DNA from: Brachyspira murdochii
Lineage (GTDB): Bacteria; Spirochaetota; JAAYUW01
Assembly: GCA_020722965.1 (NCBI GenBank)
Contig: DYJT01000011.1
Span: forward strand, 4,554-68,553
Length of the DNA stretch: 64,000 bases
Direction of reading: 5' to 3'
In this document: positions 1,607 through 52,726 of the stretch, in pieces
Layout: each line of letters starts with the position of its first letter
Position numbering within the stretch: the stretch's first letter is position 1
Made by a program: the position numbers and the translations under genes
The notes under the pieces: model-generated
Seen by the model: the letters and a program-made list of their open reading frames with translations, nothing else
The model's database searches: none
What the model was told of the DNA's origin: nothing

Positions 1607-1617
1607 GCTACGGGTGC
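1544..1617 (-). tRNA. tRNA-Arg (anticodon GCG)
   Basis: The reverse complement is GCACCCGTAGCTCAAGTGGATAGAGCATCAGATTGCGGATCTGAGGGCTGGGTGTTCGAGTCACCCCGGGTGCG. It folds as a 74-nt cloverleaf: acceptor GCACCCG/CGGGTGC, D stem GCTC/GAGC, anticodon stem TCAGA/TCTGA with loop TTGCGGA, and T arm GGGTG-TTCGAGT-CACCC. Confidence 0.85.
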
Positions 1618-23268: not shown

Positions 23269-23356
23269 AATTAAAAAATCCTTAAAATTAAAAAATTTTT
23301 AAAAAATTAAAATTAAATAAATTAAAAATAAAACTAAACTAAAAAATATTAAAATA

Positions 23357-26300: not shown

Positions 26301-26638
26301 TGACCAATTTCCTGAGGATTTTTTTCTTTTAACGAATCTATATAACCCAATAATAATTTATCATCTTTAATCTTTCTCAATAAGCTTACATCTTTTTTTT
26401 CAAAATAAGCTTTTACCTCGAATAAAAAGATCAAGATTCTGTCTTTTATCTCCTGCGCAGCTGCATTTGTAAATGTTACCAATATTATCTTGTCCGCTGG
26501 AATTCCATCCAGGATAAACTTTATGAAAAGCTGAGCTAAACAATGAGTCTTCCCTGTTCCGGCACTGGCTTCTATAAGATATTCTTTATTGTCAAAATTT
26601 GATTCAAAAATAAATTCAACACTATTCGCTTTCCCCAT
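23357..26638 (-). CDS. recB: Exodeoxyribonuclease V beta subunit RecB (UvrD-like helicase plus PD-(D/E)xK nuclease)
   Basis: Motifs EASAGTGKTH and VDEFQDTD, with C-terminal nuclease motifs GFIDLLF...IIDWKTN and QYYLYS. I prefer the ATG at 26638 (purine-rich AAGGGA upstream) over the ORF-track start at 26668. Confidence 0.85.
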   Translation of the reverse strand: MGKANSVEFIFESNFDNKEYLIEASAGTGKTHCLAQLFIKFILDGIPADKIILVTFTNAAAQEIKDRILIFLFEVKAYFEKKDVSLLRKIKDDKLLLGYIDSLKEKNPQEIGHYILNLEKAIFDFDKIISSTIHSFTIRLCKEFESELGLGFNYEFAKDYKRLNFEILKRFLYDNQYLIKDFNNIINEDKANELKNNEIKIKTYDYNFIKQFLELQKFIENQRLSSADANYSVDIEEKYFNQFFKFYTQNSFNLKMELKDFSFNDSIELLLKNLSSNSSIKEKISKRFEVLIVDEFQDTDKMQVELFQKIFSGKKVFYIGDPKQSIYGFRGGDLYNYLNIENTIPEENKIKLFKTYRSTKVVTYFINRFSELLYVYEDYKTDSEDKSLQIKYKEVESARQDSDNIFSEVNIYEIPAEKENKYSFYKKIATRIIQKIEELKRKDENLNLGDIAILIKNKVDIETYYRIFTEKKFPVALKIFKSVFKTDEAIFIYYLLSAIIYKNRITEVKRLVSTNYFTFSFDYINRNIASIYSELILPLETLHQDWEKHGIFSVFENIFLNSIFPIKYFNPFTIKDYERRLTNIRQIFEFLAINFSDQDISLNNQLDFLKNLISQNFDEDQMDLSSMRLENEENAVIISTIHSAKGLEYNTVFCPKLFVNASINKGTYIYYEEDNGYWIKKFRLSSNIKTNKDTKKDLKNKINKKIRDTLNLQNYNTFYVATTRAKNNLYIFIEKDEEKEDENSEKNKNNINKLIKNLKRIYPIDYDSFEEKKLEIDIKENNLSKISNIKKAEELDTGIFNEKIENSYSYSSIVHIHNLPKESEKTRKIALEYVIDFKPFTQENSYDFEERYSSFMGKIAGNIFHETMQNIFNNKQDIKEEINQEFIEKIKNISEKIIIKYYRSKDIIKNFVDENTNLVINTLKAEIPLLKKRIIDIDNALSEVEFFAKARKNNLLSFYKACNRKVSEKELKEVFINGYYRGFIDLLFIENNTINIIDWKTNNLSDLTQEDFQGNVIDKNIIDRAMIKNNYDIQYYLYSAAVYKYIKVNKLPYDFINIYYFFVRYVDEKNNNGVYSKKIDKDQLEELSKILLE

Positions 26639-29600
26639 TCTTTTTCCCTTTTTTATTGGATAAATCATATAGTTCTATAATTTTTTTTTCAAATTTTTCT
26701 ATATTTTCATAATTTTCTTTAAACATATTATTTTTGATTGCTCTATCAAAGATCCATTTTTTAAAATAAGAAAAAATATTGAAATTTTCGCTATAATTAT
26801 AGTCGCTAACAAAAATAGAATTCTCCCAATGGGCAACAATCTTATCCAAATTAATTCTCCCAAACTCTAAATATGATTCTTTATTATAATCTATTTCAAA
26901 TATTGGTATAAAATTTTTAAAAAAGATCATCAATTTATAAATTTCAAGAATATCTAATAATAAACAATCTTGCGATTCTTCCTTAATATTTTCAGATTTC
27001 CCATTTATTTTCAAAAGTTTTAAATTTTTATATGTTTCAGTAATAGCTTCCCTTTTTATATCAAAATCTTCCAATTGATAAAATTTCCCCAATAAACATT
27101 TATAAAGATAATTTTTAATTTTGTCATTTGGATTTTTTTTACTATCTTTTGAGTTTTTTGAATAATAGATTATTGCTTTTTCAGTTTCATTTTCTAAAAT
27201 TAACCAATATTTGATTTTTAATTTGAGATCTAACTTTTCAATTGGGATTATTCTTGTTTCTTCTTTTATCTCTAACTGATCGATATCAAAATTTAAACTA
27301 TTTGCTCTATTTACTAAATTTTCATCTATAACATTTATAAAGCTTGTTACATCGGATTGGAATAATTGGCTTTCTATTTCGGCTAAAGAGCCACGATGAT
27401 TCAAATATTTAATTTTTAAACAATCGGAATGTTCTTCAAACAATGGGTAATTATTTCTTCTTTTTTTTAATATTAATTTTAATAGTTCTATAAAATATCT
27501 TTGATATTTAATTTTTGAAACATATTTATCGAATTCTGATTCAACTTTTTGATTATTTATGTATTTTTGAATATTCAAAACCTTTTTTAAATAATGTTCG
27601 ACAGGTGAAATTATGAATTCAACAAGATCCTCAAAATCAATGGTATTAGTTTGATCTATTATTTCTGCCTTAAAATCTTTTGAATCTATAAATTTATCTG
27701 AATTATCTTTGAAAATCTTCTCTAAAAGATTTTCCCACCCTTTATTAAAAGTCACAAATTTATAATTTTCTTCATCAAAATATTTTTTGCTAAATGGTTG
27801 AAGTGGCATCAGATTTTTTTCTAACTTTATTTCTTTTTTCAAGATATCTGAAATCAAGTTTATATCCTGTTCCAACATCGTTATTAAAATTGATGGAGAT
27901 ATATCCTTATTACTAATAGGATCTTTACCAACATAACTTAATATTAAAAAATCTTTTGCAGATAAAATTGTCTGTAAAAATAGATATTTATCTGATTCCC
28001 TTAAATCCCTATCCCAGCTTTTCTTCTTATTAACAAGTAAATCATAGGAAAGATTAATTGAACTGCGAGGATAATTATCGTCACTTAGTCCCAATATTAC
28101 TATTACCCTTGCCGGGATATTTCTCAAGGTTATTAAATTTGAAAATAAAATTTTACCTTTGGTATAACCATAACTATATGGATAGGATTTCAAATATAAG
28201 ATTAAAAGATCTACCAATCTATTAAATGGGATTTGAATATCTTTTTTCCCAAAGTTCTGTTCAAAATTATTATAACCTAGTTCAATATCATTTAAAAAAT
28301 TTATAATTTTATTTCTATAGTATATGATTTCATCATGATACTCTTGTATATCTATAAAAAAAGTAGATAATAAATTTTCAAAAAAATTTCTGTATTCCTC
28401 TATATTATGAGTACTTTTTGCGAATTTATAAAAATATAAAATGTTAAGATAAATTGAATAAATTTTTTCGATTATCGTTAAAAATTCACCCTCAATTTCT
28501 GAATTTAAATTAATTATCTTATCTTTATATTTATTATAGACATTATTATCATAATATGAATTAGAAGATAAATATCCGATATAATATGTTAAAAAATTAG
28601 ATTCAATATCAAATTGAAATGAATTCGATTTATTAATATAATAACTACCTTTTATTTGTTTATAATAATTTGTTATATCTTCATAATCTACTCCCCATAC
28701 ATAATCTGAAAAAAGATCAGAAAATGAATCTATATCTTCATAATCAATTTCAAATTTTTTCATTATCATTTCATTTGAAATAAAATTTAAAAAATCTTTT
28801 TTGCTAAAATTAGATCTTAAAACTTCAAATAAAAGATTTAATAAATTAAATATATCAGAATTCTTAAAATTATCTTTATCCACTAACATATAAGGAAGGG
28901 AAGGACTCTGTAAATCAAAAACATTTTCTATAAAAGGCTGATATTTTGAAATATCGGGAGCCATCACAAAAATATCTTCATAGTTAAGGCTCTGATCCTT
29001 ACTTAAAATATAGCAAATCTTGTCTTTAACAGTCTCAATTTCCCTTAGTTTAGTATAATTTATCAAAATCTCTATGGAATTATCATCTACTAGATTAATA
29101 TTGGAAAGATCGTTTCCCTTGATAAAGTTTTGATATACATTTAGTAGAGTTTTGTCATCAGACTTTGCCTCATTTTTTCTACTTTTAAAATTTAATTTTT
29201 CAATTATATTATTATTTGTATAAGTAAAATATTTTAAAAAATCATTTATAAATTCTTTTTGATTATCAAAGCAAAATTTTAGTAATAATGAGGTTTTTTC
29301 TTCAGAATGGGTATTCTTTTCATTTTTATTTAAAATAGATAAAGGAACCCAAAAATAAAAATTTATATCTACAAATTTGGAGATAGTTTTTAAAAAATCG
29401 ATATAAAAATATGGAATATTGTCAAATCCTATAATAAATAAAGGGTTTGATGGGAAATTGGATTTAAAATTTTTATCTTTTAATCTTTTACCAATATTAA
29501 ATTTAATATTTTCAAAATTACTATTTATGATAAGTTTTATCAATTCTATCTGAAATTGGTTCTGGTAAATTTTACCTTCTTCTATTAATTCACCAAGGTT

Positions 29601-30086
29601 GCTAAAATAATCGGTATTTACACTATTTAAATCTTGCCATTGAAGAATTTCCCATTCATCAAAATTTCTATATGTTTCATATTGCTCGTAAAGATCTGAA
29701 AATTTATATAAAAAAACAACAAAATTATCAAATTTTTCTGTTTGCTCTATTTCTTCTTCCTTTGCTTTATCGTAAAAAAATGAATATAAATACCAAAACA
29801 CAATATTCTTGTTTTCAAGTTTTAACTCGGGATTTAAAAAGAATTTTGAATATTCGTTAAATAAAGATTGAAGATTAAAAGTTTTAATATTAAGCAAGAC
29901 AGATCTTTTCTCTATGAATTTGTAATATAGATATTTGCTTATACCTTGAGTTTGAGTAATGATTATAGGATTATTCGATATATTTTGAATACCTTCTTTC
30001 TTATTTTCAATTATGTTTATATAATCCTCGATAACTTTTGATATCATTTTATCAAATGAATCATAAAACAAGATTTTATACGACAT
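26622..30086 (-). CDS. recC: Exodeoxyribonuclease V gamma subunit RecC
   Basis: 1154 aa, directly upstream of and overlapping recB. It has no intact Walker A. The size, the N-terminal pattern (..IIITQTQGISKYL..) and the recC-recB-recD gene order fit RecC rather than AddB. Confidence 0.7.
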   Translation of the reverse strand: MSYKILFYDSFDKMISKVIEDYINIIENKKEGIQNISNNPIIITQTQGISKYLYYKFIEKRSVLLNIKTFNLQSLFNEYSKFFLNPELKLENKNIVFWYLYSFFYDKAKEEEIEQTEKFDNFVVFLYKFSDLYEQYETYRNFDEWEILQWQDLNSVNTDYFSNLGELIEEGKIYQNQFQIELIKLIINSNFENIKFNIGKRLKDKNFKSNFPSNPLFIIGFDNIPYFYIDFLKTISKFVDINFYFWVPLSILNKNEKNTHSEEKTSLLLKFCFDNQKEFINDFLKYFTYTNNNIIEKLNFKSRKNEAKSDDKTLLNVYQNFIKGNDLSNINLVDDNSIEILINYTKLREIETVKDKICYILSKDQSLNYEDIFVMAPDISKYQPFIENVFDLQSPSLPYMLVDKDNFKNSDIFNLLNLLFEVLRSNFSKKDFLNFISNEMIMKKFEIDYEDIDSFSDLFSDYVWGVDYEDITNYYKQIKGSYYINKSNSFQFDIESNFLTYYIGYLSSNSYYDNNVYNKYKDKIINLNSEIEGEFLTIIEKIYSIYLNILYFYKFAKSTHNIEEYRNFFENLLSTFFIDIQEYHDEIIYYRNKIINFLNDIELGYNNFEQNFGKKDIQIPFNRLVDLLILYLKSYPYSYGYTKGKILFSNLITLRNIPARVIVILGLSDDNYPRSSINLSYDLLVNKKKSWDRDLRESDKYLFLQTILSAKDFLILSYVGKDPISNKDISPSILITMLEQDINLISDILKKEIKLEKNLMPLQPFSKKYFDEENYKFVTFNKGWENLLEKIFKDNSDKFIDSKDFKAEIIDQTNTIDFEDLVEFIISPVEHYLKKVLNIQKYINNQKVESEFDKYVSKIKYQRYFIELLKLILKKRRNNYPLFEEHSDCLKIKYLNHRGSLAEIESQLFQSDVTSFINVIDENLVNRANSLNFDIDQLEIKEETRIIPIEKLDLKLKIKYWLILENETEKAIIYYSKNSKDSKKNPNDKIKNYLYKCLLGKFYQLEDFDIKREAITETYKNLKLLKINGKSENIKEESQDCLLLDILEIYKLMIFFKNFIPIFEIDYNKESYLEFGRINLDKIVAHWENSIFVSDYNYSENFNIFSYFKKWIFDRAIKNNMFKENYENIEKFEKKIIELYDLSNKKGKKNGESE

Positions 30087-32831: not shown

Positions 32832-33152
32832 AAATTTAAAAACATAAGTTAAAATCATTAAAATAGTTGATAAAATTATAATTAGATCTATTAATTAACT
32901 ATAATTAACAAATTTAATAAAACATTTTATTTTCATAATAGTTTAATTTAATTAGGCTTAAATTGTTTTTCTTGTTTGTTTTAATTTAAGTTTAAATTTT
33001 TTATTTAATTTCGAATTAAATAAAATGAAGAAGAAGTAGTATTTTTTAATTTGAATTTAAGAAATTTGAAATAAAAAATTAAAAAAGATAGGATAGTTTT
33101 TTATTAAGAATAAACAATTTTATAAATTCAAAAAGTTTTAATGGAGTTATTC

Positions 33153-34394
33153 ATGAAAAAATTAATATTTTCGATGATAGTTTTTTTATTTCTTTTATCT
33201 TTTTTTCAGATTAATCTTCTTGCCAATGAAAATCCTAACAAATTTATCTTTTCTCCATTTCCCGGGATTAACTATCCATTTCAAGTAGATACAATAAGTT
33301 GTGGTATAGGCCTTTTCGGTCTGGTAATTCCATCTTATGATGGTTTTGTTTTTTCATTTATTTTTAATGATGTTAAAGACTATTCAGAGGGGCTTGGTAT
33401 AGCATTTTTATTTCAAACCTATAAGAATGGCTATTCTGGTATAATTTTAAGTGGTGGTTTTAATTTAGTTTTGAAAGATTACAAGGGTTTTGAGTTTGGC
33501 TTCTTTTCGAATATGAACTTTGGTAAATTTTCAGGTATCCAATTAGGCATGCTTAACTTTAACTCTGATGATTACAATGGGCTACAAATTGGTTTTATCA
33601 ATATTAACATGAAACAGGTAGATGGCTTTTCATTTTCACTTGTATCTTTCAATAGAAATTTTAATAATTCTCTTATTTTTTCACTTTTTGCAAACTTCAA
33701 TTTTGGTGATTCTTCCGGAATCAAATTAGGATTTTTAAATTACAACAGTAAAAGTTTTGAAGGTATCCAAATTGGGATTATCAACATTGCATCGGAATTT
33801 AGTGGTTTTCAAATAGGTATTATCAACATAGCAAAAAATGCCGAAGGATTATCTTTAGGATTGTTTAATTTTTTCAAAAATGGATACAACAGAATTGAAT
33901 TAACATTCAATGAATTAGGATTTATAAAGTTAAATTTTAAATGGGGTGATAGAAAATTTTACAATATAGTTGGCTACGGTATGGATGATACTCAGGAGAA
34001 ATTTCAAAGTACCTTTGGTTTTGGCACAAACTTAAAGCTCTTTTTCTTTAATTTTGATGTTGAATTTCTATTAATTGGTAATTCTAACATTAATAGCTTC
34101 GATCAAAACCTCTATTTTTTAAACTATAATGATTTGGACTTTTTTTTAGGTGGTCTATTTTATCTAATCCTGGGTGATACAAGTTCATTTTCTTTAAGAT
34201 TTAATCTTTCAGTTCCTCTTGGATTTGTTGAGATATTTGCGGGCATATCTTATCACCTGGGGTTCAAGCTTGATCCAGAAACTGCGACTTTTTCATGGTA
34301 CAAGCCATCTGAAGCACCTTCATTATTTTCTGATTTCGCATTTTTCCAATATTCCTGGTTTGGCTTTTCCTTAGGTATTCAATTTCGTTTATAG
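33153..34394 (+). CDS. Secreted repeat protein built from G-x-Q/K/S-[LI]-G-x-x-N units, probably an all-beta surface or outer-membrane protein
   Basis: The signal peptide is MKKLIFSMIVFLFLLSFFQINLLANE. The start is set to ATG 33153, with GGAG 6 nt upstream. There are at least 7 repeat units of about 14-16 aa, e.g. GIQLGMLNF, GLQIGFINI, GIKLGFLNY, GIQIGIINI, GFQIGIINI and GLSLGLFNF. Confidence 0.55.
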   Translation: MKKLIFSMIVFLFLLSFFQINLLANENPNKFIFSPFPGINYPFQVDTISCGIGLFGLVIPSYDGFVFSFIFNDVKDYSEGLGIAFLFQTYKNGYSGIILSGGFNLVLKDYKGFEFGFFSNMNFGKFSGIQLGMLNFNSDDYNGLQIGFININMKQVDGFSFSLVSFNRNFNNSLIFSLFANFNFGDSSGIKLGFLNYNSKSFEGIQIGIINIASEFSGFQIGIINIAKNAEGLSLGLFNFFKNGYNRIELTFNELGFIKLNFKWGDRKFYNIVGYGMDDTQEKFQSTFGFGTNLKLFFFNFDVEFLLIGNSNINSFDQNLYFLNYNDLDFFLGGLFYLILGDTSSFSLRFNLSVPLGFVEIFAGISYHLGFKLDPETATFSWYKPSEAPSLFSDFAFFQYSWFGFSLGIQFRL

Positions 34395-34407: not shown

Positions 34408-34680
34408 ATGGCAGAAATTATTGTCGAAAAACCCGATCAAGAAAAGCTACAAAAACTTAAAGTAAAATCCTGGCCTATATGGGAAAAAGAACCCAGTAAC
34501 TTCCCGTGGGAATATGATGAAATCGAAACTTGCTACTTTTTAGAGGGAAAGGTTTATATTCAAACCGAAGATGGTAAAGAAATACAAATTGGCAAAGGCG
34601 ATCTTGTTACCTTTCCAAAGGGTTTGAAATGTAGATGGAAAATTGTTGAAAAGGTTAAAAAGCATTATTCTTTTGGCTAA
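34408..34680 (+). CDS. Small cupin (DUF861/cupin_3-like) protein
   Basis: 90 aa with the pattern WPIWEKEPSNFPWEYDEIETCYFLEGKV...GDLVTFPKGLKCRWKI. GGAGA lies 8 nt upstream. Confidence 0.65.
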   Translation: MAEIIVEKPDQEKLQKLKVKSWPIWEKEPSNFPWEYDEIETCYFLEGKVYIQTEDGKEIQIGKGDLVTFPKGLKCRWKIVEKVKKHYSFG

Positions 34681-35617
34681 ATGATTTTGCATAACAGTAA
34701 ACACAGTTAAACTTGCATGTATTATACTGTCCTATATCTTTACTAATTATACAACGACAATCTTTTCTTTGCCCTTTATCTTTTAAATTTTTTGTATTTT
34801 TTAAAAATTCCATCAGTAGTTTATCTTCATAAAATAGTTTGCTCATCAGCTTATCATCGATGCAGCTGTTATGCGAGATTCCAAAATCGAAAAGATTAAT
34901 ATTTTCAGAACAGGTAGAGACAGAAAATTCAGGATTTATTTTTTTATATTCACTGTAATATTTATAAAACCTTTTAGCAAATTCTATTTTTTGGATATCG
35001 CTAAATTCAAGATTTGAAATATTTTCTTTATTAAATCTTTCTCGATTAAAATTTATAAAATTCCTTTGAACTTTCTTATATTGCATTATATCGACAAAAC
35101 TTATGACAAGTTTATCCGTATAATCTATTAATATTTTCAATATCGAGTTTATCTTATTTATAAGTCTATCTATATAATCTTCTTCGTATAATATAAGAGG
35201 ATCAAATCTTAATATTACCTTTTCTTTACCAATTTTTAAAGACAACTTCTTAAAAAGCTCAACTCTTTTATTTAGCGAAGGAAGATCTGGTTCAATGCCT
35301 TCATCTTCATAATCATTAATGGTAAATTGAAAGTAATAATTTATCTTCTTTTTATCTAGAATTTCAAGATAAGGTAAAATCCTGTAAGGGTATTTACTCC
35401 AAAAAACAATAACCCTCGTATTTTTAACAGAAACATATTGAATCTTTCTATTAAAGGGATTGATCCATTTAAAATATCCTTTTTCAAAATTATTGAAAAA
35501 CCAATCTGAATAAAAAGCCGGTATATCTGTGGCTCGGCTTGCAGATAAGATTATTGGATAAACTGCCTGTACAACTTCTTTATTTTCTAAAATTAGATCT
35601 TTTTTTTCTAAAATCAT
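34655..35617 (-). CDS. DUF1848-family protein with a C-terminal Cys cluster
   Basis: 320 aa with N-terminal SASRATDIPAFYSDWF. The C-terminal sequence is CRCIISKDIGQYNTCKFNCVYCYA (CxC-x11-C-x3-C-x2-C). Confidence 0.65.
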   Translation of the reverse strand: MILEKKDLILENKEVVQAVYPIILSASRATDIPAFYSDWFFNNFEKGYFKWINPFNRKIQYVSVKNTRVIVFWSKYPYRILPYLEILDKKKINYYFQFTINDYEDEGIEPDLPSLNKRVELFKKLSLKIGKEKVILRFDPLILYEEDYIDRLINKINSILKILIDYTDKLVISFVDIMQYKKVQRNFINFNRERFNKENISNLEFSDIQKIEFAKRFYKYYSEYKKINPEFSVSTCSENINLFDFGISHNSCIDDKLMSKLFYEDKLLMEFLKNTKNLKDKGQRKDCRCIISKDIGQYNTCKFNCVYCYAKSFSQKNNAF

Positions 35618-36802: not shown

Positions 36803-37444
36803 ATGGCATTATTTGATCAAGAAATTAAAGACCAACTAAAAAGCATCTTATCGTCTTTGAACAACACTATTAAGATTCTTTTTTTTACTCAAGAGATAGA
36901 ATGCCCATCTTGTAGTATGACTCACGAATTTTTGTCTGAGATAGTAGAATTAAGCGATAAGATGCACCTTTCTACTTATGAATTTAAAAAAGATAAGGAA
37001 ATCGCTGACAAATTTAAGATAGACAAAATACCGGCGATAATAGTTACAGATGAAAAAGAGACCATTCAGGGTGTTAGGTTTTTTGGAATGCCTGCAGGGT
37101 ATGAGATAAATTCGTTTTTATCCGCATGTCTTGAGGTTTCGGGGCATAAAGAAAATATTGATTCAAAGATTCTAGAAGAAATAAAAAAGATAGACAAAGA
37201 AATTCATATTCAAGTATTTATAACTTTATCCTGCCCTTACTGTCCATCGGCTGTTGCTACAGCTCATAAACTTGCAATTGAGAATAAAAATATTATTTCA
37301 GATATGGTAGAAAGCTCGACTTTCACCCCTATGGCCATTAAATACAATGTGTCCTCTGTGCCAAAAATAGTGATAAATGAAAAAAATGAATTTATTGGAG
37401 CACAACCGATAGAAAAATTTTTAGAGGTAATCAAAAATATTTAA
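36803..37444 (+). CDS. Glutaredoxin-like protein disulfide oxidoreductase with two thioredoxin folds
   Basis: 213 aa with two CxxC sites (CPSC and CPYC) in tandem thioredoxin-like halves, as in the AhpF N-terminal domain and archaeal/Thermotoga PDO. AGGAGG lies upstream. Confidence 0.75.
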   Translation: MALFDQEIKDQLKSILSSLNNTIKILFFTQEIECPSCSMTHEFLSEIVELSDKMHLSTYEFKKDKEIADKFKIDKIPAIIVTDEKETIQGVRFFGMPAGYEINSFLSACLEVSGHKENIDSKILEEIKKIDKEIHIQVFITLSCPYCPSAVATAHKLAIENKNIISDMVESSTFTPMAIKYNVSSVPKIVINEKNEFIGAQPIEKFLEVIKNI

Positions 37445-40230
37445 CTCATATTTTCTAAATTAATTTCAAATAAATCTATCTTCTTTTTAGCTATCATAGA
37501 TTGAATAGCGGCTCTTATATGATCATCCATTGTAAAATAAAATATCTGCCATCCTTCAAATGAAAGATCGGTTATGAAATCTATGAGATTTTCTCTTCTG
37601 AAATAATCAGAATGCTGGAAAGCATCATCAAGTATTAAAAAAGCAGTCTTATCCTGTAAAAGATATTTCAAAATACCGATTCTTAAAGCTATCAATACCT
37701 GCTCTTTTGCACCGGTGCTTAAATCTTTTATTTGAAATTTATTATAGTCATCTAGTATTACTATTTCACTACTTTCGTTATTACTATATTTTTTGCGTTT
37801 ACCATCTTCAAAATTTTGAAATTCAAGTTTTTTATATTTATTTGTAGTTTTTACCAGGATATTTTTGAATTTGTCTGAACTTAAAATATTTTCAATCTCA
37901 GTATCTTCTTCATTCTTAAAATCTTTTATTATATCTTTTAGCAGATCACTTGCCAGTATTATTGATTCAGCCTTTATCTTTTTGGCTTTTTGCTGATCTT
38001 TTGTCTGATAAAGTTTTTCGATTAAATCTTCAATATCATTACCTGGACCAGAGTTTGTAAGAGATATTAATTTATTTTTTAATTCTTGCTCATCTGTTTC
38101 TTTTTGCTTTATCTTTTCATTAATCTCCATTATCTTGTTTTCTAATTCATCCAATCTTTCTTGTGAAAATTCTACACCTGGATCATTTTCTTCGTAATCT
38201 TTTTCTGCAACAGAAAGACCTTTTAATATACCTTCAGCCTCGCTTTTTTCGTTTTCAATTTTCTTTTCTAGTTTTATTAATTCTCCATAAATTTCCCCAA
38301 AATTCTCGATATTATCAATTTCTCTATTGATAAATTCGGAAAAATGATTTGAAATTATATTTTTTATTCGATTTAAGATTTCTTTTAATTCGTCTTCTTT
38401 GATTTTTACATTAGTTTTATGATCTTTTAACTCCTCTAGTTTTGATTCAAGTTTTGTCATTTTATCCTTTACTTTTTCAAATTCTTCTTCATTGTATTTA
38501 TTAGCATAACTATTACAATCTATTATATTGTCAGTTGAAATAAAAGGCTCTATATTTAACCTGTCAAATTTCTTTTGAAAATCATCTTTTTCATTTTGAA
38601 TTTTAGCTCTTTTAGCTTTAATTTCACTATAAACTTCATTCCATTTTACTTCTTCAAGATTTTCATAGGATAAACTTTTAAAAATATCATTTATTCTTTT
38701 TCTATTATTAACATCATCAGTAGAAAATATTTCATATTGTTCTTTTATAAAATTATATTTTGTCTCTTTACTCTCTGTTTTTCTTATTAATTCATCCAAC
38801 TGAGTTAAACTTTCAAGATTTATATTAAAATATTCTTTGAATTTTTGTTTTATCTTTTCTAATTCTTTTTCTATATTTTGGTTTTTAGCTTTGCCTAAAA
38901 ATTTTAAAATAGAAAAAAGAAAAAATATGAAATTAATTAAAGATGAAGCAAAAAATATTATTTTAAAAAGATTTTTAGTCAAAAAACCTGCTAAAAAACT
39001 AGAAAAAATCATTAATATTGAAAAGATTATCAAACTTTTTGAAGAAGAAAAAAAACCTTTTTCATTCTTTGAAGAAATTAAATATTTTGAGTAATTTTCT
39101 TTTGCGGATCTTAAAAAATCAATATTTTTAATATCTTCTTCTAATTCGTTTTTTTGCCTTTCTAGTTTTTCTAATTTTGATTTTCCCACAGAAGTTTTAT
39201 CTAATAAATTATACAACTCATTTAATTTATCTTCTGAATAATCTAGTAGTTCTTTGTTAAGATCTTGAATTTTTTTATCAATCAATGCGGCTTTACATTT
39301 TTTAGCATATAATAAATCATCATATGTATCTTTTAAAGATTCAATTTCTTTTTCAGATTCTTTTAAAATTTCAATCTGTTGATTCAAATTATTTAAATCT
39401 TTGTTTTTATCATCATAATCCTTAATTAAACTTTCTAATTTATTAATATTATCTTTATCTAATTTGCTCAATTTTTGTTCTAATTCCTTTAAATTTTTAG
39501 ACAGCTTATATGCTTGATACCTTTTGGCTTTTATTATGCGCTCTTTTTCAGTTTTAAGTTCTTCTTGCATCTGTTTAAGCTCTATCTCTGAAATTTTTTC
39601 ATAATTTTTAATAATCTCTTCCTCTGTAGCCTCTATCTTTTTAAATTTTCCAAGTATTTCCTCATAGTTATTTATTTTCCCTTTTTTATCATATTTTAAG
39701 TTATTTAAATCTTCTTTATCTATTTTTTTCTCATTATTAGAAATTGTTTCTAATATTTTTTCATTTAAAATCTGATCAAATATTTTATCTGGGAAAAAAA
39801 TCTTCTTAATAAATTCTTTATCAATCCCGGCTTCCACATTTTGTACTAAGGATGCTTCCCCTTCCTTTATTATAAATAGTTTAGCTATATCCAATGGAAA
39901 ATTCATACCCTTTTCACTCAAGTATACATCCAGTTTTATTTCTTTATCATTTTCAGAATTAAATGTAATTTCTGATTTTCCATTATCTGTAAATTTATCT
40001 AACCCATTTATTACAACATTTCCTTCTCCCAATCTTCTTAGATGACCCCAATCACTTTCATTGGTATTTTTAAAAATTGTTTTAATAATAAATTCTACAA
40101 TTAATGATTTACCTCTTTCATTTTTCCCATAAATAAGGTTAAAGTTTTTAAATTCTTTATTTAATGTACTTATTGGACCTAAATTCTTTACACTAATCCT
40201 CGAAATTCTCATATCTATATCCTTTACCAA
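37441..40230 (-). CDS. Rad50/SbcC-like coiled-coil ATPase (YhaN/SbcE-like) with a central membrane hairpin
   Basis: N-terminal ISVKNLGPIS...GKNERGKS (Walker A). C-terminal signature DLSTGAKEQ and Walker B FLILDDAF. Long heptad-rich arms. Two hydrophobic spans lie near aa 390-450 (SLIIFSILMIFSSFLAGFL and IIFFASSLINFIFFLFSILKFLG). The ATG at 40212 is an alternative start. Confidence 0.6.
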   Translation of the reverse strand: MVKDIDMRISRISVKNLGPISTLNKEFKNFNLIYGKNERGKSLIVEFIIKTIFKNTNESDWGHLRRLGEGNVVINGLDKFTDNGKSEITFNSENDKEIKLDVYLSEKGMNFPLDIAKLFIIKEGEASLVQNVEAGIDKEFIKKIFFPDKIFDQILNEKILETISNNEKKIDKEDLNNLKYDKKGKINNYEEILGKFKKIEATEEEIIKNYEKISEIELKQMQEELKTEKERIIKAKRYQAYKLSKNLKELEQKLSKLDKDNINKLESLIKDYDDKNKDLNNLNQQIEILKESEKEIESLKDTYDDLLYAKKCKAALIDKKIQDLNKELLDYSEDKLNELYNLLDKTSVGKSKLEKLERQKNELEEDIKNIDFLRSAKENYSKYLISSKNEKGFFSSSKSLIIFSILMIFSSFLAGFLTKNLFKIIFFASSLINFIFFLFSILKFLGKAKNQNIEKELEKIKQKFKEYFNINLESLTQLDELIRKTESKETKYNFIKEQYEIFSTDDVNNRKRINDIFKSLSYENLEEVKWNEVYSEIKAKRAKIQNEKDDFQKKFDRLNIEPFISTDNIIDCNSYANKYNEEEFEKVKDKMTKLESKLEELKDHKTNVKIKEDELKEILNRIKNIISNHFSEFINREIDNIENFGEIYGELIKLEKKIENEKSEAEGILKGLSVAEKDYEENDPGVEFSQERLDELENKIMEINEKIKQKETDEQELKNKLISLTNSGPGNDIEDLIEKLYQTKDQQKAKKIKAESIILASDLLKDIIKDFKNEEDTEIENILSSDKFKNILVKTTNKYKKLEFQNFEDGKRKKYSNNESSEIVILDDYNKFQIKDLSTGAKEQVLIALRIGILKYLLQDKTAFLILDDAFQHSDYFRRENLIDFITDLSFEGWQIFYFTMDDHIRAAIQSMIAKKKIDLFEINLENMS

Positions 40231-41326
40231 ATAATATATCTAATGCTTTTACCAAAATATCTTCCTTTGAACACTCGACTTTTTCACCATTTATTTTTTG
40301 ATTATCTATATCTAATTGCTCAACTTTTTCTTTTAAATTTTTTAAAATTGTAAAAAGAATTTCATTTCTTGAAGGATTTGAATTCATCTCTTTACTATCA
40401 ATGTTTTTATTATCATCCTCATTAAAAAATTTAATAGATTTTTGATCCACATATCTTTTAATTTCGGCTATAAGCCGTTTTTTATCTGTCGTAAAACCAT
40501 TTAATCTTAACCTCAATCTTACCTTCTTCAGTTGATCATTACTTAAGTTCCAACTCGAAATTTTTTCGTCTAACTGTTTTTTTAAAAGTTCTATCTCATT
40601 TTCTACTGGATAAATGGTTAATTGTTCATCATAAAATAGATACTCGGAATCTACCTCGATCATATTTATTTTGTCATATGATGTATCGTATACTATACAA
40701 TTTCTTTTCCCAGTCTCGGTTATATCTATTCCACAAGGTGAGCCGGGATAATAAACTATTCCATAATTATATGCTTTATGAATATGCCCAAGAATCACAT
40801 ATTTAGGTTTAAATTTATTTATAGATGAGGTGGAAATTGGCATATATAAACCTGATTCATAGTAATTTATCGAAATATTATTAGTCAAGTAATCCCCATG
40901 TGAAATTATAATACTATTTTCAAATGATTCTGAAGACTCATATTCTGCGAGTATTTCATCCATAGTCTTACCTATTTTAAATGGAATGAAAAAAATCTTT
41001 TGGTTATCTATTAACTTTGATTTTGGTTTTTCTATTACTTCAATATTACTGGATTTAAAAGATACCTGACTAATTTTTGGGTCATGATTGCCTGGTATAA
41101 TTATTATATTAATTTTTTTGTTTGAACAAAGATCATCAAACTCTGAATAATTATAATAATCTTTGTTGAATGTATCACCCGCAAATATAAAATACTCAAT
41201 TTTATTTTCAGGATTGTTTGAATTCTCCTTCTCAATATATGAAAAGATTTTATTTAAAGTATTAAATCTTTCAGGATTTTCTCCTTTTTCTTTCAAATGT
41301 AAATCTGCAGTAATTAAAATTCTCAT
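40193..41326 (-). CDS. SbcD/Mre11-like metallophosphoesterase (YhaO/SbcF-like)
   Basis: 377 aa with calcineurin-fold motifs ADLH, AGDTF, GNHD, SHGD and GHIH. It overlaps the downstream ATPase gene. Confidence 0.7.
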   Translation of the reverse strand: MRILITADLHLKEKGENPERFNTLNKIFSYIEKENSNNPENKIEYFIFAGDTFNKDYYNYSEFDDLCSNKKINIIIIPGNHDPKISQVSFKSSNIEVIEKPKSKLIDNQKIFFIPFKIGKTMDEILAEYESSESFENSIIISHGDYLTNNISINYYESGLYMPISTSSINKFKPKYVILGHIHKAYNYGIVYYPGSPCGIDITETGKRNCIVYDTSYDKINMIEVDSEYLFYDEQLTIYPVENEIELLKKQLDEKISSWNLSNDQLKKVRLRLRLNGFTTDKKRLIAEIKRYVDQKSIKFFNEDDNKNIDSKEMNSNPSRNEILFTILKNLKEKVEQLDIDNQKINGEKVECSKEDILVKALDILFGKGYRYENFED

Positions 41327-41486: not shown

Positions 41487-42890
41487 ATGAAAAAATCTTT
41501 TTTCTGTATAATCCTTGTTCTTCTGATTTTTTCTTTTATTTCAGGTTCATATCAGGATACAATCCCTTCATATTTTAATAAGATTGAAGGTGCTTTTATT
41601 GGAAATTTAAGTGTTGGATCTACCGATTTACGGATTGTCTTAATTATTTCCAAAGATCTCTTTCAAGAGAACCAACTAAACGCAATATTAATTTCTTTGG
41701 ATCAAAGTTCATCTTTAATCCCTTCAACTTCATTTAGCCATGATAAGGATAAATTAACTTTTTCTTTTTCAAATATAAAAGCAAGAATAGATATAATATC
41801 TTTTAAAGATGAAAAGATCAAATCATATTTTATTCAAAATAAAAATAAATTCGAAATAGAAATGGTAAGAATTCCAAGACCTCAGGAGCCAAGACATCCT
41901 TTTAATTATGAACATAGAGAAATCCAGATAAATAATAAAGAAATAGTATTAAATGGGACACTAACTATTCCTCAAAATAAAGAGTTTCAAAAAAATGGTT
42001 TGTTCCCTGCAGTAATCTTAATTACAGGATCTGGAGCTCAAAATAGAGATGAAGAATTATTTGGACATAAACCATTTTTAGTATTATCCGATTTTTTGAC
42101 AAATCTTGGTATTGTAGTTTTAAGAGTCGATGACAGAGGAGTAGGAAAAGATATAAATTTATTCTCAAACGCCGATTCTTTTGATTTTTTAACAGATTGC
42201 ATCGCACAATTAAATTTTTTGAAAACACTTGATTTTGTTGACAAAAATAGGATTGGAATAATAGGGCATTCTGAAGGCGGTCTAATATCTTTTCTTGCTG
42301 CATCGAAATTTTCCAGTGATTTTTCATTTATTATCTCATTAGCAGGTCCATCTCAAAGAGGCGATAAACTTTTACTTACTCAACAAGAATTAATAGCTAA
42401 AGCTTTATCCATGAAAGAAAGTGATATTAAGAAGATGCTTCAAATTAATTCGTCTTTTTTTGAACTTATAATTAAATATAAAGATGATCCTTCTACAGAA
42501 GAACTCGAAAAAGAAATTAAAGAATTAGCAAAGAAATTTAAATTAACTAAAAATGAAACCCAGCAAGTAATAGCACAATTAACTTCAAAATGGATGCGAA
42601 CTTATATTCTGCTTGACCCTGCTGAATATTTAAAAGATATAAAATGCCCGGTTCTTGCTTTATTCGGTGAAAAGGATTTACAGGTTAGTGCCAATATAAA
42701 TTCAGAAATAATGAAATCAGTTTTTGATTCAATGGGAAAGACAAACTATGAAATTTTAATTTTAAAGTCTCATAACCACCTTTTTCAAAATGCAAAAACT
42801 GGCAATATATATGAATATTGCTTGATAAACGAGACTATATCGAACTTAACACTTGAAAAGATTAAAGAATTTTTATTTAAAAACTTATAA
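41487..42890 (+). CDS. Secreted alpha/beta-hydrolase
   Basis: 467 aa with a signal peptide. It has the nucleophile elbow GHSEGG and a late HNH..Q region consistent with a Ser-Asp-His triad. The N-terminal roughly 140-aa beta domain is unassigned. Confidence 0.6.
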   Translation: MKKSFFCIILVLLIFSFISGSYQDTIPSYFNKIEGAFIGNLSVGSTDLRIVLIISKDLFQENQLNAILISLDQSSSLIPSTSFSHDKDKLTFSFSNIKARIDIISFKDEKIKSYFIQNKNKFEIEMVRIPRPQEPRHPFNYEHREIQINNKEIVLNGTLTIPQNKEFQKNGLFPAVILITGSGAQNRDEELFGHKPFLVLSDFLTNLGIVVLRVDDRGVGKDINLFSNADSFDFLTDCIAQLNFLKTLDFVDKNRIGIIGHSEGGLISFLAASKFSSDFSFIISLAGPSQRGDKLLLTQQELIAKALSMKESDIKKMLQINSSFFELIIKYKDDPSTEELEKEIKELAKKFKLTKNETQQVIAQLTSKWMRTYILLDPAEYLKDIKCPVLALFGEKDLQVSANINSEIMKSVFDSMGKTNYEILILKSHNHLFQNAKTGNIYEYCLINETISNLTLEKIKEFLFKNL

Positions 42891-50336: not shown

Positions 50337-52652
50337 TTATTTTTTAATTAAGTATACAAAATCACCTATAGCAGGACCTTTACCATAGATCTTCAGTATT
50401 TTAGCATTTATTATTGTTGTGGCATATGATGTTATTTTAACAATAGCAACTGTTATAAAGACTCCATTTTCATTTTTATGCTTTACTATTAACTGATCCC
50501 CAATATTTATCTTAATAGAAAGGTTAGGATCTTTTAATATCTGAACAATTTCGGGGAAAATTTTAAATATATTTCCTACCCTTATTTCATCTGCTTCTTG
50601 ATTCTCTTCTATCTGTGCAATTGGCGATATTGAATTTTGTTTTACAGAAATATAAATATTTTGAAGTAATTCTGATGCTAATGTAGAATATGATGTGTTT
50701 CCATATTTACTAAATAATTCTAAGAGATATTTCATAGATAGATCATAGTCTTTTTCATTATATGCTTTTTTCGCCTTTTGAAAGATTGATGAGGCTAAAT
50801 CTTCCTGTTCCTTATTTTGCTGGTTGATTTCTGCTTTAATTTTGTATTCGACAACAGTTAGGGCATTTTTTGAATTTGAATATTGCGAAAGAAAATCATT
50901 CGAAAGTTGAATTACAAGACTATAATTTTTTTCCTTGAATGCAGTTAAAATAGAATTAAATAGAGGTAAAGCAGCTGCTTCGAGATTATTCACTCCCTCT
51001 TGATACTGCTTTTCAAAAACTAGATGAATAAAATCCTCAAAGTATATTTTTTCATTGTCAACTACTATATCATATTTTAAAAAAGCCTTATAATAATATT
51101 CATAAGCCGAAACCAGATTTCCTTTTTTGTGTTCATTATATGCTTTTTCAAGAAGATTGGTTTTTTCTTCCTTCTTTTGTTCATCTGTTTCTTTTTTGAC
51201 TAAATCACTTAAAATCATATCTATAATAAATTTATCGAACAATTTTTCATCTTCCGCTATTATCGCGGCTGATGGGTTTGTAAAGATAAATGAGTAAAAA
51301 TCGTTTAAAGCTTTTTTTAGCGCATCTTGGTTATTATTTTGATATGATTGAAGAATTGCCTTATAATAGAATAAAATAGTTTCTTTTAGTTTTATTTGAA
51401 GGGCAGAAGATTGTTTTAGTTGCTCATTTTCTTGCTCTATTTTTTTCTGTGCTTCTTCTGAAAGAGCTAATTTTTCTTCAGCAGCCTTAATTTCTTGTTT
51501 TGCTTGTTTGATCTGCTTTTCTTTTTCTGCAATAGCTTGCTTATATGAATTCTCTTTCGCCTTCAATTCATCTTCTTTTGCCTGCATTTGTTCTTGAAAT
51601 GCTTTTCTCTGTTCATCACTCTGCTGTCTTGCTTCTTTAAGCCTTTTATCTTTTTCGGCAAGCAATTCTTTTATTCTTTTATCGTATTCCGCTTTACTTA
51701 TTAATCCTCTATTTAACTTGTTTTTCTCTTCCTCAATCTTTTTCTCGAATTGATCTTCTATCAGCTTCGTCTTATTATTTAAAGCTATTATCTGATCTTT
51801 TTCAAACTGCTCCTTTTGTTTTTGTATCGATTCTAATTGAAGAGTTATCTCTTTTAATTGTTCATTCAATTGAGCCTTTTCTTGTTCCTGCTTTTTCTGC
51901 AATTCCCTTATTATTAAAGATTCCATATTGCCAATACTTTTTACATCCTGCGCCATTCTCGCTTGCTGTTGATTTGAAACTATATTTAATATAACAAAAA
52001 CTACAACGGCAAGAACCAATAGTATCGAATATAATGATATAATCTGTGGAGCAAATGATTTGCTCTGTTTCATGTATTTCTTTTGAACTTCATTAAAGTT
52101 CGAAATCTTTAATTTATCAATTTCATTTTCTATTTGATCAAATATCTCTTTCTTTTTTTCTTCGTCAAAATTACTATCAGAAGGTTTATTTTTTTTTATT
52201 TCTTCCATTTTATCCTCATATAGATTCTCTATGCTGATTTGTTCTATCTCAATTATATTATTGCTATAATTTTCATTATTTTCAATAATAAAATAATTAT
52301 TAAATATCCATTTTATAGATAGAATTATAACTTTTTTCCCATTAAATTCAATCTTTTCGCATATTAAATTTTTTCCATTATCTTCAATCTGTTTTTCAAT
52401 TGAAATTTTATAGAACTTCAAAGGTAAGATAATCTTATGATTTTCATATTCAATATAGTTATAACTTTCGCTTTTTTCATAATCACGAAAAGTAACTTTT
52501 AATTCATTTTTTAAAACTGATTTTATTGAGATAAGATCTTTCAATTTTAAATATTCTTTTTTTTCAATATTATAAATCTTGGTTTTTTCTTCTATTGGCA
52601 AAGCAAAAAATAAGTTATCTACCTTAAATATGAAATAATAATTTTTATTCAT
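50337..52652 (-). CDS. Large single-TM protein: N-terminal roughly 200-aa domain, TM, Q/K/E coiled coil, TPR-like helical repeats, small C-terminal beta domain
   Basis: The ORF track gives 786 aa from TTG 52697. I prefer ATG 52652, with AAGGG upstream. The TM is IISLYSILLVLAVVVFVILNIV. The heptad-rich region runs from about nt 51400 to 51950. Function unknown. Confidence 0.45.
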   Translation of the reverse strand: MNKNYYFIFKVDNLFFALPIEEKTKIYNIEKKEYLKLKDLISIKSVLKNELKVTFRDYEKSESYNYIEYENHKIILPLKFYKISIEKQIEDNGKNLICEKIEFNGKKVIILSIKWIFNNYFIIENNENYSNNIIEIEQISIENLYEDKMEEIKKNKPSDSNFDEEKKKEIFDQIENEIDKLKISNFNEVQKKYMKQSKSFAPQIISLYSILLVLAVVVFVILNIVSNQQQARMAQDVKSIGNMESLIIRELQKKQEQEKAQLNEQLKEITLQLESIQKQKEQFEKDQIIALNNKTKLIEDQFEKKIEEEKNKLNRGLISKAEYDKRIKELLAEKDKRLKEARQQSDEQRKAFQEQMQAKEDELKAKENSYKQAIAEKEKQIKQAKQEIKAAEEKLALSEEAQKKIEQENEQLKQSSALQIKLKETILFYYKAILQSYQNNNQDALKKALNDFYSFIFTNPSAAIIAEDEKLFDKFIIDMILSDLVKKETDEQKKEEKTNLLEKAYNEHKKGNLVSAYEYYYKAFLKYDIVVDNEKIYFEDFIHLVFEKQYQEGVNNLEAAALPLFNSILTAFKEKNYSLVIQLSNDFLSQYSNSKNALTVVEYKIKAEINQQNKEQEDLASSIFQKAKKAYNEKDYDLSMKYLLELFSKYGNTSYSTLASELLQNIYISVKQNSISPIAQIEENQEADEIRVGNIFKIFPEIVQILKDPNLSIKINIGDQLIVKHKNENGVFITVAIVKITSYATTIINAKILKIYGKGPAIGDFVYLIKK

Positions 52653-52726
52653 TATTCTTGCCCTTATAATTTTAATTAAAAATCTTGATTTTTCCAAATT
52701 ATCAACATTTAATTTTTTTGGTGATT

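Follow-up and report, generated by a model that had tools for sequence, protein, structure and literature searches.

Nuclease and ATPase genes at the locus

We analysed a stretch of 64,000 nucleotides (nt) from Brachyspira murdochii (NCBI GenBank assembly GCA_020722965.1, contig DYJT01000011.1, positions 4,554 to 68,553 of the forward strand), hereafter referred to as the window. The subject of this study is a pair of genes on its minus strand, encoding a nuclease of the Mre11/SbcD type and a Rad50-like ATP-binding cassette (ABC) ATPase. The two open reading frames (ORFs) together span 37441-41326, and they overlap by 38 nt when the ATPase is read from its TTG start (Table 1). A preliminary description of the window, prepared by a model from the letters and their translations, had reported overlapping ORFs of 377 and 929 amino acids (aa). 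Both ORFs were confirmed together with this overlap, but the ATPase start is more likely the ATG at 40212, which gives a protein of 923 aa and an overlap of 20 nt. This ATG was favoured because AAGGA was read 7 nt before it, a database copy of the protein (P0001) has 923 aa, and the N-terminus then matches that of the family. The 20-nt overlap of stop and start suggests that translation of the ATPase may be coupled to that of the nuclease. Residue numbers of the ATPase follow the 929-aa ORF throughout. The possibility that the pair is a pseudogene or an artefact was rejected, since both ORFs are uninterrupted and conserved, and many genomes encode relatives of 709-960 aa. A scan for promoters and terminators returned 45 promoter-like sites against 32.7 expected and was uninformative in this AT-rich DNA.

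Table 1. Features of the gene pair and of the surrounding window (KD19, Kyte-Doolittle hydropathy over 19 residues; AF2, AlphaFold2 model).
Feature	Position	Strand	Basis
Mre11/SbcD/SbcF(YhaO)-type metallophosphoesterase nuclease gene, 377 aa	40193..41326	-	ORF
Nuclease motif I, D8-L-H10	41297..41305	-	D8, H10 kept 69/69
Nuclease motif III, G79-N-H-D82	41081..41092	-	all four kept 69/69
Nuclease motifs V/VI, G180-H-I-H183	40778..40789	-	G180, H181, H183 kept 69/69
Nuclease stop / ATPase start overlap, 20 nt	40193..40212	-	sequence, with ATG start
Rad50-like ABC ATPase gene, SbcE/YhaN kind, 929 aa from TTG at 40230	37441..40230	-	ORF, hhalign, AF2/Foldseek
Walker A GKNERGKS, residues 35-42	40105..40128	-	N37, E38, G40, K41 kept 36/36
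N-terminal coiled-coil arm, about residues 185-398	39037..39678	-	AF2 helices 185-414 with short breaks
Hydrophobic helix 1, residues 399-417	38980..39036	-	KD19 peak 2.35, without charged residue, part of AF2 helix 370-414
Polar turn T418-K-N420 at chain reversal	38971..38979	-	alignment; AF2 non-helical break 415-421
Hydrophobic helix 2, residues 421-442	38905..38970	-	KD19 peak 2.45, AF2 helix 422-450
C-terminal coiled-coil arm, about residues 443-796	37843..38904	-	AF2 helices 422-796 with breaks
ABC signature LSTGAKEQ, residues 837-844	37699..37722	-	L837, S838, T839, G840, E843, Q844 kept 36/36
Atypical Walker B FLILDD then A-F-Q-H, residues 864-873	37612..37641	-	D868, D869, Q872, H873 kept 36/36
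H-loop region, Met in place of His, residues 896-901	37528..37545	-	alignment
RecC-like, Exonuc_V_gamma, 1154 aa	26622-30086	-	domain match
RecB-like, UvrD-helicase, 1103 aa	23357-26668	-	domain match
RecD-like, AAA_30 / RecD SH3, 706 aa	21148-23268	-	domain match
RNase P RNA class A, 221 bits	56469-56790	-	
Thiamine pyrophosphate (TPP) riboswitch, 69 bits	47361-47457	-	
Two tRNA genes	81-166, 1544-1617	-	

The nuclease matched the Pfam family Metallophos with an E-value of 1.1e-15. Its match to TIGR00619 (sbcd) had an E-value of 4.9e-9 and a score of 36.3 bits, which is under the cut-off of 77.65 bits. When the window nuclease was aligned with 68 translated homologues from related loci, D8, H10, D51, N80, H81, H143, H181, and H183 were each kept in 69/69 sequences. 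As judged from this alignment, the nuclease has the full set of Mre11-type metal ligands in a predicted calcineurin fold.

The Walker A, signature, and Walker B motifs of the ATPase stand in the ORF translation as the preliminary description had given them, and Walker A takes the form [GS]-x-N-E-x-G-K-[ST] in the family. A structure was predicted by AF2 from a 36-sequence alignment, and the model (mean predicted local distance difference test score (pLDDT) 79.2, predicted template modelling score (pTM) 0.46) was judged on its secondary structure and confidence values. It contains a split beta/alpha head, helices from residue 185 to 414, a single mid-chain turn at 415-421, and return helices from 422 to 796. 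In the helix map, the C-terminal arm exceeds the N-terminal one by about 140 residues. The N-terminal arm ends in a conserved juxtamembrane motif, W372/Y380, which has F372 in the window protein, and the C-terminal arm opens with an invariant E456 followed by an F464/F468 motif. The best PDB match of the model in Foldseek was Rad50 of the Chaetomium thermophilum MRN complex (7zr1_C) with an E-value of 4e-12 and a full-length alignment, followed by chains of SMC, Smc5/6, MukB, and JetC. The TM-scores were low (0.28-0.33), as expected of long flexible rods. A profile search of PDB sequences returned P. furiosus Rad50 heads only. The Rad50 match and the invariant metal ligands of the partner agreed with the earlier assignment of the locus to an Mre11/Rad50-like pair.

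Hydrophobic hairpin at the coiled-coil apex

The middle of the coiled coil holds two strongly hydrophobic helices, which are separated by a short polar turn. Kyte-Doolittle windows of 19 residues exceeded 1.6 solely at starts 396-401 and 420-430, and the best window had a Wimley-White octanol sum of -16.9 kcal/mol. The two hydrophobic segments picked out in the preliminary description were located at residues 399-417 and 424-446, with peaks of 2.35 and 2.45. Residues I/L/V/F/M make up 60% and charged residues 10% of positions 396-447, compared with 26-27% and 45-47%, respectively, in the arms (47% charged in the N-terminal arm). CxxC is absent from the ATPase and its sole cysteines are the isolated C312 and C572, as had been noted. 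At the level of sequence, these features support a hairpin of two hydrophobic helices of about 19 residues each, which would replace the zinc hook at the apex of the coiled coil. An 85-aa ORF on the plus strand (38837-39094), within the hairpin-coding region, was rejected as most likely a mirror-strand artefact of AT-rich coding sequence rich in Phe, Ile, and Leu.

Conservation of the hairpin among homologues

A word-indexed search returned 136 relatives at E ≤ 0.001, and the best 120 were examined. A central hydrophobic block was present in 120/120 of these homologues, and two separate 17-residue windows above 1.6 were present in 114. The loop between the windows had a median length of 4 residues (range 1-16), and the number of Lys and Arg per 12 residues was 2.05 and 2.92 in the flanks and 0.68 in the loop. 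The centre of the hairpin was located at 0.454 ± 0.017 of the protein length, both in an approximately 875-aa form (46 proteins) and in an approximately 700-aa form (74 proteins). From the longer to the shorter form, the N-terminal part decreases from 380 to 300 residues and the C-terminal part from 465 to 361; such joint shortening is predicted by an apex lying between two paired arms.

When 1.84 billion representatives were searched exhaustively with a profile, 565 clusters matched at E ≤ 1e-30 and 1779 clusters at E ≤ 1e-10. Among 134 further listed representatives at 50% identity, all had at least one hydrophobic window and 127 had two; the other seven comprised six with a second window of 1.35-1.51 and one fragment. 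An uncharged run of 18 or more residues was present in 251/251 family proteins of at least 600 aa, at 0.44 ± 0.04 of their length. Twelve distant homologues from the same phylum (709-807 aa) also had the block (12/12), and eight of them had a phosphoesterase ORF with the motif GNH[DE] directly upstream. No zinc hook was found at the position of the hairpin in any of 254 + 12 + 2 relatives: CxxC was present at the apex in 0/120 and 0/134 proteins, and it was absent altogether from the 12 same-phylum homologues and from two Bacillota YhaN proteins described below. CxxC away from the apex was found in 2/120 homologues (residues 273 and 565) and in 1/134, far from the centre. As a control, E. coli SbcC had CPLC at 506 and no hydrophobic block, and its top window (1.54) was located in the head. 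The hydrophobic block is therefore beyond chance, as it recurs at the same relative position across homologues and is absent from the SbcC control.

Columns 399-417 and 421-439 of the 36-sequence alignment present hydrophobic residues on all faces save one, which is occupied by small residues spaced by 7 (S/A at 404 and G at 411; G/A/S at 423 and S/G at 430). The column entropies of the hairpin are 2-3 bits, compared with 0-0.6 bits at W372, Y380, E456, F464, and F468. Tyr is dominant in columns 436-437, and Lys or Arg in 440-443. A lipid-facing hairpin was read from this all-face hydrophobicity, the free variation of the sequence, the Tyr belt, and the Lys/Arg-rich flanks. The preliminary description had proposed a membrane hairpin in place of a zinc hook. 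Composition and conservation supported this proposal: the segments are hydrophobic on all faces, are far poorer in charged residues than the arms (10% and 45-47%, respectively), and keep their hydrophobicity across the family, and they did not appear as buried coiled-coil packing. Hence, the central segments appear to behave as a transmembrane hairpin, and we infer their insertion into the membrane. The small-residue faces suggest that the helices may pack tightly within one hairpin or between two.

In the consensus of the family profile (A1), the C-terminal arm (about residues 560-700 of the window ATPase) appears to contain two modules that resemble each other and both close with an acidic D-P-G break, a possible sign of internal duplication in the longer (approximately 875-aa) forms. 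A self-BLAST of the window ATPase revealed no internal repeat.

Relationship to SbcE/YhaN and SbcF/YhaO

The preliminary description had noted a resemblance to the YhaO/YhaN pair of Bacillus. By hhalign, profile A1 matched a Listeria-type YhaN with a probability of 98.4% (E 1e-14) and a Staphylococcus-type YhaN with one of 97.9% (E 5.5e-13), which substantiated this resemblance; in both cases the C-terminal head alone was reported as aligned. The match to E. coli SbcC had a probability of 11.9% (E 0.0025). The two YhaN comparators were drawn from unverified 'phage' records and stand in for B. subtilis YhaN itself. The records, OR848140.1 (labelled as a Listeria phage) and OR845005.1 (labelled as a Staphylococcus phage), are unannotated UNVERIFIED_ORG entries that were obtained as partial tblastn matches. 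In each record, three consecutive genes encode a phosphoesterase (406 and 398 aa), an ATPase (905 and 981 aa), and a protein of the HD/OB fold (314 and 313 aa). Judging by this yhaO-yhaN-yhaM order, which is typical of Bacillota chromosomes, both records look like chromosomal host DNA of Bacillota and not phage DNA. The same order is present in B. subtilis according to the available sections of the report on SbcE (PMC2811018).

The two Bacillota YhaN proteins matched AAA_27 (PF13514) with E-values of 1e-20 and 4e-25 (74.6 and 89 bits), have no CxxC, and each contain two central hydrophobic helices with Kyte-Doolittle maxima of 2.6 and 3.0. Their Walker A is of the type x-N-E-A-G-K-S-T. By phmmer, the window nuclease matched the Staphylococcus-type YhaO at 1.3e-9 and the Listeria-type YhaO at 6.7e-6. 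Some close homologues of the ATPase carry PF13514, and the Atlas look-alikes of a stored homologue (P0009) were all AAA_27 clusters, including Bacillota clusters of 891-994 aa. An AAA_27 search of the genome was unspecific, as matches were obtained in 12/14 control genomes. The score against Rad50_Sulf was 43.8 bits, with a cut-off of 1000. Thus, of the profile comparisons proposed earlier, the one with YhaN was positive by hhalign, whereas AAA_27 stayed under its cut-off and TIGR00618 (SbcC) gave no match. On the basis of the profile match to YhaN, the shared central helices, and the AAA_27 look-alikes, we classify the two genes as divergent homologues of SbcE/SbcF (YhaN/YhaO) that come from outside Bacillota. 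The hairpin, as far as the sequences tell, is a trait of the whole SbcE/YhaN family. The apex is thus distinctive in comparison with SbcC and Rad50, as had been suggested, but it is a property of the named family and not peculiar to this locus.

The available sections of the report on B. subtilis SbcE describe it as most similar to SbcC but without CxxC (Krishnamurthy et al. 2009/2010, PMC2811018). They attribute to SbcE a 'unique central domain', the first half of which is rich in hydrophobic residues and contains a conserved proline, and state that the isolated domain was completely insoluble when overproduced in E. coli (PMC2811018). In the same sections, SbcE interacts with SbcF and contributes to double-strand break (DSB) repair and transformation; its deletion caused DSB sensitivity and a mild drop in transformation, and was synthetic with recN or sbcC (PMC2811018). 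In competent cells, a fusion of SbcE to yellow fluorescent protein (SbcE-YFP) was located at the poles, which depended on ComK, and SbcF behaved likewise (PMC2811018). The terms 'membrane anchor' and 'transmembrane' are not used for the central domain in these sections (PMC2811018). The accessible parts of later publications on SbcE and SbcEF added no structural point, and our literature search found no description of a membrane-anchored SbcE/YhaN. The SbcEF family is thus already named, and its membrane-hairpin architecture seems to be unstated in print. UniProt may already list predicted transmembrane segments for YhaN.

Atypical ATP site

The Walker B motif of the family ends in Asp-Asp, D868 and D869 each being kept in 36/36 sequences, where the aligned E. 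coli SbcC has LFLDEG (Asp-Glu). M901, also kept in 36/36, occupies the place of the H-loop His of SbcC, which in that protein comes next after the aligned block. The Asp-Asp Walker B with a His at +4 is also present in both Bacillota YhaN proteins, and a hydrophobic run followed by Asp-Glu was found in the last 150 residues of only 2/251 family proteins. Because of the Asp-Asp Walker B and the absence of a canonical H-loop His, the ATP cycle may be different from that of Rad50.

Proposed model of a membrane-tethered DNA-end processor

Here, we propose that the locus encodes a membrane-tethered DNA-end processor of the SbcF/SbcE (YhaO/YhaN) type, related to Mre11/Rad50, and we assign this model a probability of roughly 0.6. 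Its membrane insertion, topology, hairpin dimerisation, substrate, and role are all inferred. SbcF would act as a two-metal phosphoesterase nuclease, and the N- and C-terminal halves of SbcE would form one head linked by a long antiparallel coiled coil. The hairpin would insert into the cytoplasmic membrane from inside, leaving both arms and the module of head and nuclease on the cytoplasmic side. Since the rise of a helix is approximately 0.15 nm per residue, arms of about 215 residues would let the head reach about 30 nm inward. The small-residue faces (S/A404 and G411; G/A423 and S/G430) may pack hairpin on hairpin and thereby provide a hook-like link at the apex. The head would bind DNA ends or hairpins and the nuclease would trim them near the membrane in an ATP-dependent manner.

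Several observations weigh against this model. The membrane call rests on hydropathy scales, composition, and conservation, and the AF2 confidence is lower in the hairpin (pLDDT 56-72 as means of 10-residue blocks) than in the adjoining arms (84-91). The turn region of the window protein has K419 and K423, which fits the positive-inside rule poorly, although the family average fits it. In the available sections of the SbcE report, SbcE-YFP foci of growing cells were usually on the nucleoids and moved from pole to pole within a minute, and no membrane pattern is reported there (PMC2811018). Regarding the family assignment, the ATPase sequence by itself gave no significant phmmer match to the two YhaN proteins, and only the profile comparison was significant; the phmmer comparison with SbcC was likewise uninformative. 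The ATPase scored 16.6 bits against AAA_27 (cut-off 22, residues 7-53 only) and 20.4 bits against AAA_23 (cut-off 27), so that, together with sbcd for the nuclease, the single-sequence family scores of both genes are under the curated cut-offs. We read the AAA_27 score as a sign of probable divergence and not of exclusion. Finally, given the atypical ATPase site, a Rad50-like ATP cycle is an assumption of the model.

A related explanation is that the pair is an SbcEF-type end processor whose centre is a buried dimerisation domain, such as a soluble four-helix bundle replacing the hook, or a peripheral or transient membrane binder. The wording 'central domain' and the fast nucleoid-associated foci in the available sections on B. 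subtilis SbcE (PMC2811018) fit this explanation, as do the conserved small residues spaced by 7, which suggest helix-helix packing, the modest AF2 confidence in the hairpin, and the conserved soluble motifs on both sides (W372/Y380 and E456/F464/F468). However, a soluble bundle needs polar outward faces, yet all faces bar the small-residue one are hydrophobic over 2 x 19 residues, and charge-free runs of at least 18 residues occur in all 251 relatives. In addition, free variation of the sequence with kept hydrophobicity is typical of lipid-facing segments and not of a protein core, and both the Tyr belt and the flanks rich in Lys and Arg are hallmarks of membrane interfaces. The complete insolubility of the isolated B. 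subtilis domain in E. coli, as stated in the available text (PMC2811018), also argues against it. We consider this explanation rather unlikely and prefer the membrane-inserted hairpin.

Operon structure, distribution, and genomic context

Among species genomes of GTDB, 304 stretches encode a relative, and 80 loci were kept for analysis. The nuclease gene was directly upstream on the same strand in 74/80 loci, and the six misses end at or inside the ATPase gene at a contig edge. The labels of these 80 loci include Bacteroidales, Ignavibacteriaceae, Aminicenantes, Thermodesulfovibrio, Omnitrophota, Actinomycetota, Chloroflexota, Planctomycetes, Elusimicrobia, and Fermentibacteria, and the closest relatives among them (34-36% identity) are from metagenome-assembled genomes labelled Brachyspira or Exilispira. 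No third gene was conserved among the 80 loci; the largest clusters of neighbours covered 10-15/80 loci and reflect synteny within lineages, as with the Rnf, Nth-like, and PolX-like genes. In the same phylum, 85/201 genomes had a match at E ≤ 0.001 and 48 at E ≤ 2e-8 (our own count), a patchy distribution, and a strong match was found in 4/6 other genomes of the same genus. No full-length relative was found on 72,556 plasmids or in 50,697 phage records, which gave partial head matches only.

The pair had been described as isolated between unrelated genes on the opposite strand, and this was borne out: both flanking genes are on the plus strand and encode a thioredoxin-fold protein (36803-37444) and an alpha/beta hydrolase (41487-42890). 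Wider neighbours in the window include a pyridine nucleotide-disulphide oxidoreductase, a DUF1848 protein, a cupin, a LiaF-like protein, and Era. The guanine-cytosine (GC) content of the pair is like that of its surroundings.

The pairing of an SMC-like ATPase with a nuclease is common in defence, and the preliminary description had raised defence as a possible role. We evaluated the corresponding explanation that the pair is a membrane-tethered defence system that cuts incoming phage or plasmid DNA and has no part in chromosome repair. Besides this pairing, it is favoured by weak PADLOC matches (AriA at 8.5e-5 and 20.5 bits and LmuB at 0.0037 and 14 bits for the ATPase; PDC-S10 at 3.7e-6 and 24.3 bits for the nuclease), by the patchy distribution in the phylum (85/201 genomes), and by a clear defence-type neighbour (AbiEi, AbiEii, CARF-RelE, or HEC-05) at about 8/74 loci. 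On the other hand, the neighbours in the window are housekeeping genes without PADLOC partner genes nearby, and no third gene is conserved. When PADLOC was run on the 117 nearest flanking ORFs (at least 150 aa) of the 74 loci with the nuclease gene, 85/117 had no match and 17 of the 32 matches were to generic domains, namely, 14 partial 'mad2' matches, mostly to one recurring neighbour gene of about 250 aa, and three 'REase_II' matches to ORFs of 210-230 aa. Gene neighbourhoods thus gave no support to the defence idea, either in the window or among the 80 loci. The absence of full-length relatives from the plasmid and phage records, the unremarkable GC content of the pair, and the repair and transformation phenotype of the B. 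subtilis homologue, as given in the available sections of the report (PMC2811018), also speak against it, and we regard a defence role as quite unlikely. A role of the ATPase outside DNA metabolism, in membrane or surface organisation or in adhesion, with a phosphoesterase acting on another substrate, is very improbable. In its favour, the available part of a review (PMC10786197) cites a 2022 study of B. velezensis YhaN as a 'putative ABC transporter' acting as an adhesin, YhaO was reportedly picked up in a nanoRNA-degradation screen, and the ATPase has an atypical active site. Against it, the ATPase resembles Rad50 and SMC proteins and not transporters, both in the layout of its head and arms and in its best structural matches, the partner keeps every Mre11-type metal ligand, and the genetics in the available sections on SbcE link it to DSB repair and transformation (PMC2811018).

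At E ≤ 0.001, TIGR00618 (SbcC) had no match in the genome (2.07 Mb, 95.9% complete), and the only SbcD-like match was the window nuclease. An operon of the RecBCD type, a separate end-resection machine, is located on the minus strand at 21148-30086, 7-16 kb from the pair. As this operon is present and a canonical SbcCD was not found, the pair is probably the only end processor of the Mre11/Rad50 type in the genome.

Several other features of the window were recorded. A 417-aa ORF (33141-34394, plus strand) had no Pfam match; it has a hydrophobic N-terminus resembling a signal peptide and many short Gly/Asn-rich repeats of the form G-[IL]-Q-[IL]-G-x-[IL]-N. The DUF1848 protein (34655-35617, minus strand; E 2.3e-82) has a Cys-rich C-terminus, and its gene is located between the cupin and pyridine nucleotide-disulphide oxidoreductase genes. 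Two minus-strand ORFs, 13598-16585 (995 aa) and 50337-52697 (786 aa), had no Pfam family at E ≤ 1e-5.

Implications for the SbcE/YhaN family

At least 565 clusters at 50% identity belong to the SbcE/YhaN family, which is represented in more than ten bacterial phyla and probably also among archaea. We tentatively extend the model to the family, at a little under even odds: all Rad50 relatives of the SbcE/YhaN type may be integral membrane machines, in which a dimerising transmembrane hairpin replaces the zinc hook and the DNA-end clamp is held on the inner face of the cytoplasmic membrane. If true, this would account for three published findings on B. subtilis SbcE, namely, the insolubility of its central domain, its ComK-dependent placement at the poles, and its transformation phenotype, and would define a membrane-proximal branch of DNA-end processing, of which no description was found in our literature search. 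Rad50, SbcC, and SMC proteins are thought to close a coiled-coil ring or rod round DNA, for which the hook or hinge at the apex is essential. With a membrane hairpin in place of the hook, as in this large and widespread branch, the apex would be confined to two dimensions and end processing would take place at the envelope. This could explain the part of SbcEF in transformation at the pole where DNA is taken up and is directly testable in B. subtilis. The atypical ATPase site, with its Asp-Asp Walker B and no canonical H-loop His, is a second testable difference. For annotation, the analysis identifies such pairs outside Bacillota, which are listed as 'hypothetical' or 'AAA family ATPase', as SbcEF homologues.

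Comparison with known systems

The pair is most readily compared with SbcE/SbcF of Bacillota. In both, the nuclease gene is directly upstream of a gene for an SMC-like ATPase, and the ATPase has an x-N-E-x-G-K-[ST] Walker A and an Asp-Asp Walker B with a His at +4. Both ATPases have two central hydrophobic helices and no CxxC, with heptad regions around the centre, as the latter are worded in the available sections of the SbcE report (PMC2811018). In contrast, the window pair has no downstream yhaM-type gene for an HD/OB exoribonuclease, which is present in the two Bacillota loci, its ATPase is too low in identity for single-sequence detection and is under the AAA_27 cut-off, and its host is not Gram-positive.

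SbcCD and Mre11-Rad50 share with the window pair a nuclease-ATPase operon, a nuclease of the calcineurin fold with all ligands, and an ABC head split by an antiparallel coiled coil, and they provided the best structural matches of the AF2 model. They differ at the apex, which is a hydrophobic hairpin in the window ATPase and a CxxC zinc hook in SbcC and Rad50, and at the ATP site, where the window ATPase has D-D in Walker B instead of D-E and Met instead of the H-loop His. SbcC is also separated by the profile comparison (probability 11.9%), and its model TIGR00618 does not detect the window ATPase.

Lamassu LmuB, PARIS AriA, and Wadjet JetC likewise combine an ABC/SMC-like ATPase with a nuclease effector and showed weak similarity in PADLOC or Foldseek. 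Their scores were marginal, and the window pair has no defence island, accessory genes, or presence on plasmids or phages; moreover, we know of no membrane hairpin at the coiled-coil apex of these three proteins. A comparable design principle is found in bacterial dynamin-like proteins and mitofusins, in which an NTPase head is followed by a long helical stalk with a membrane hairpin or paddle at its tip. These proteins are GTPases and not ABC ATPases, have an unrelated fold, and act on membranes, whereas the window pair would act on DNA.

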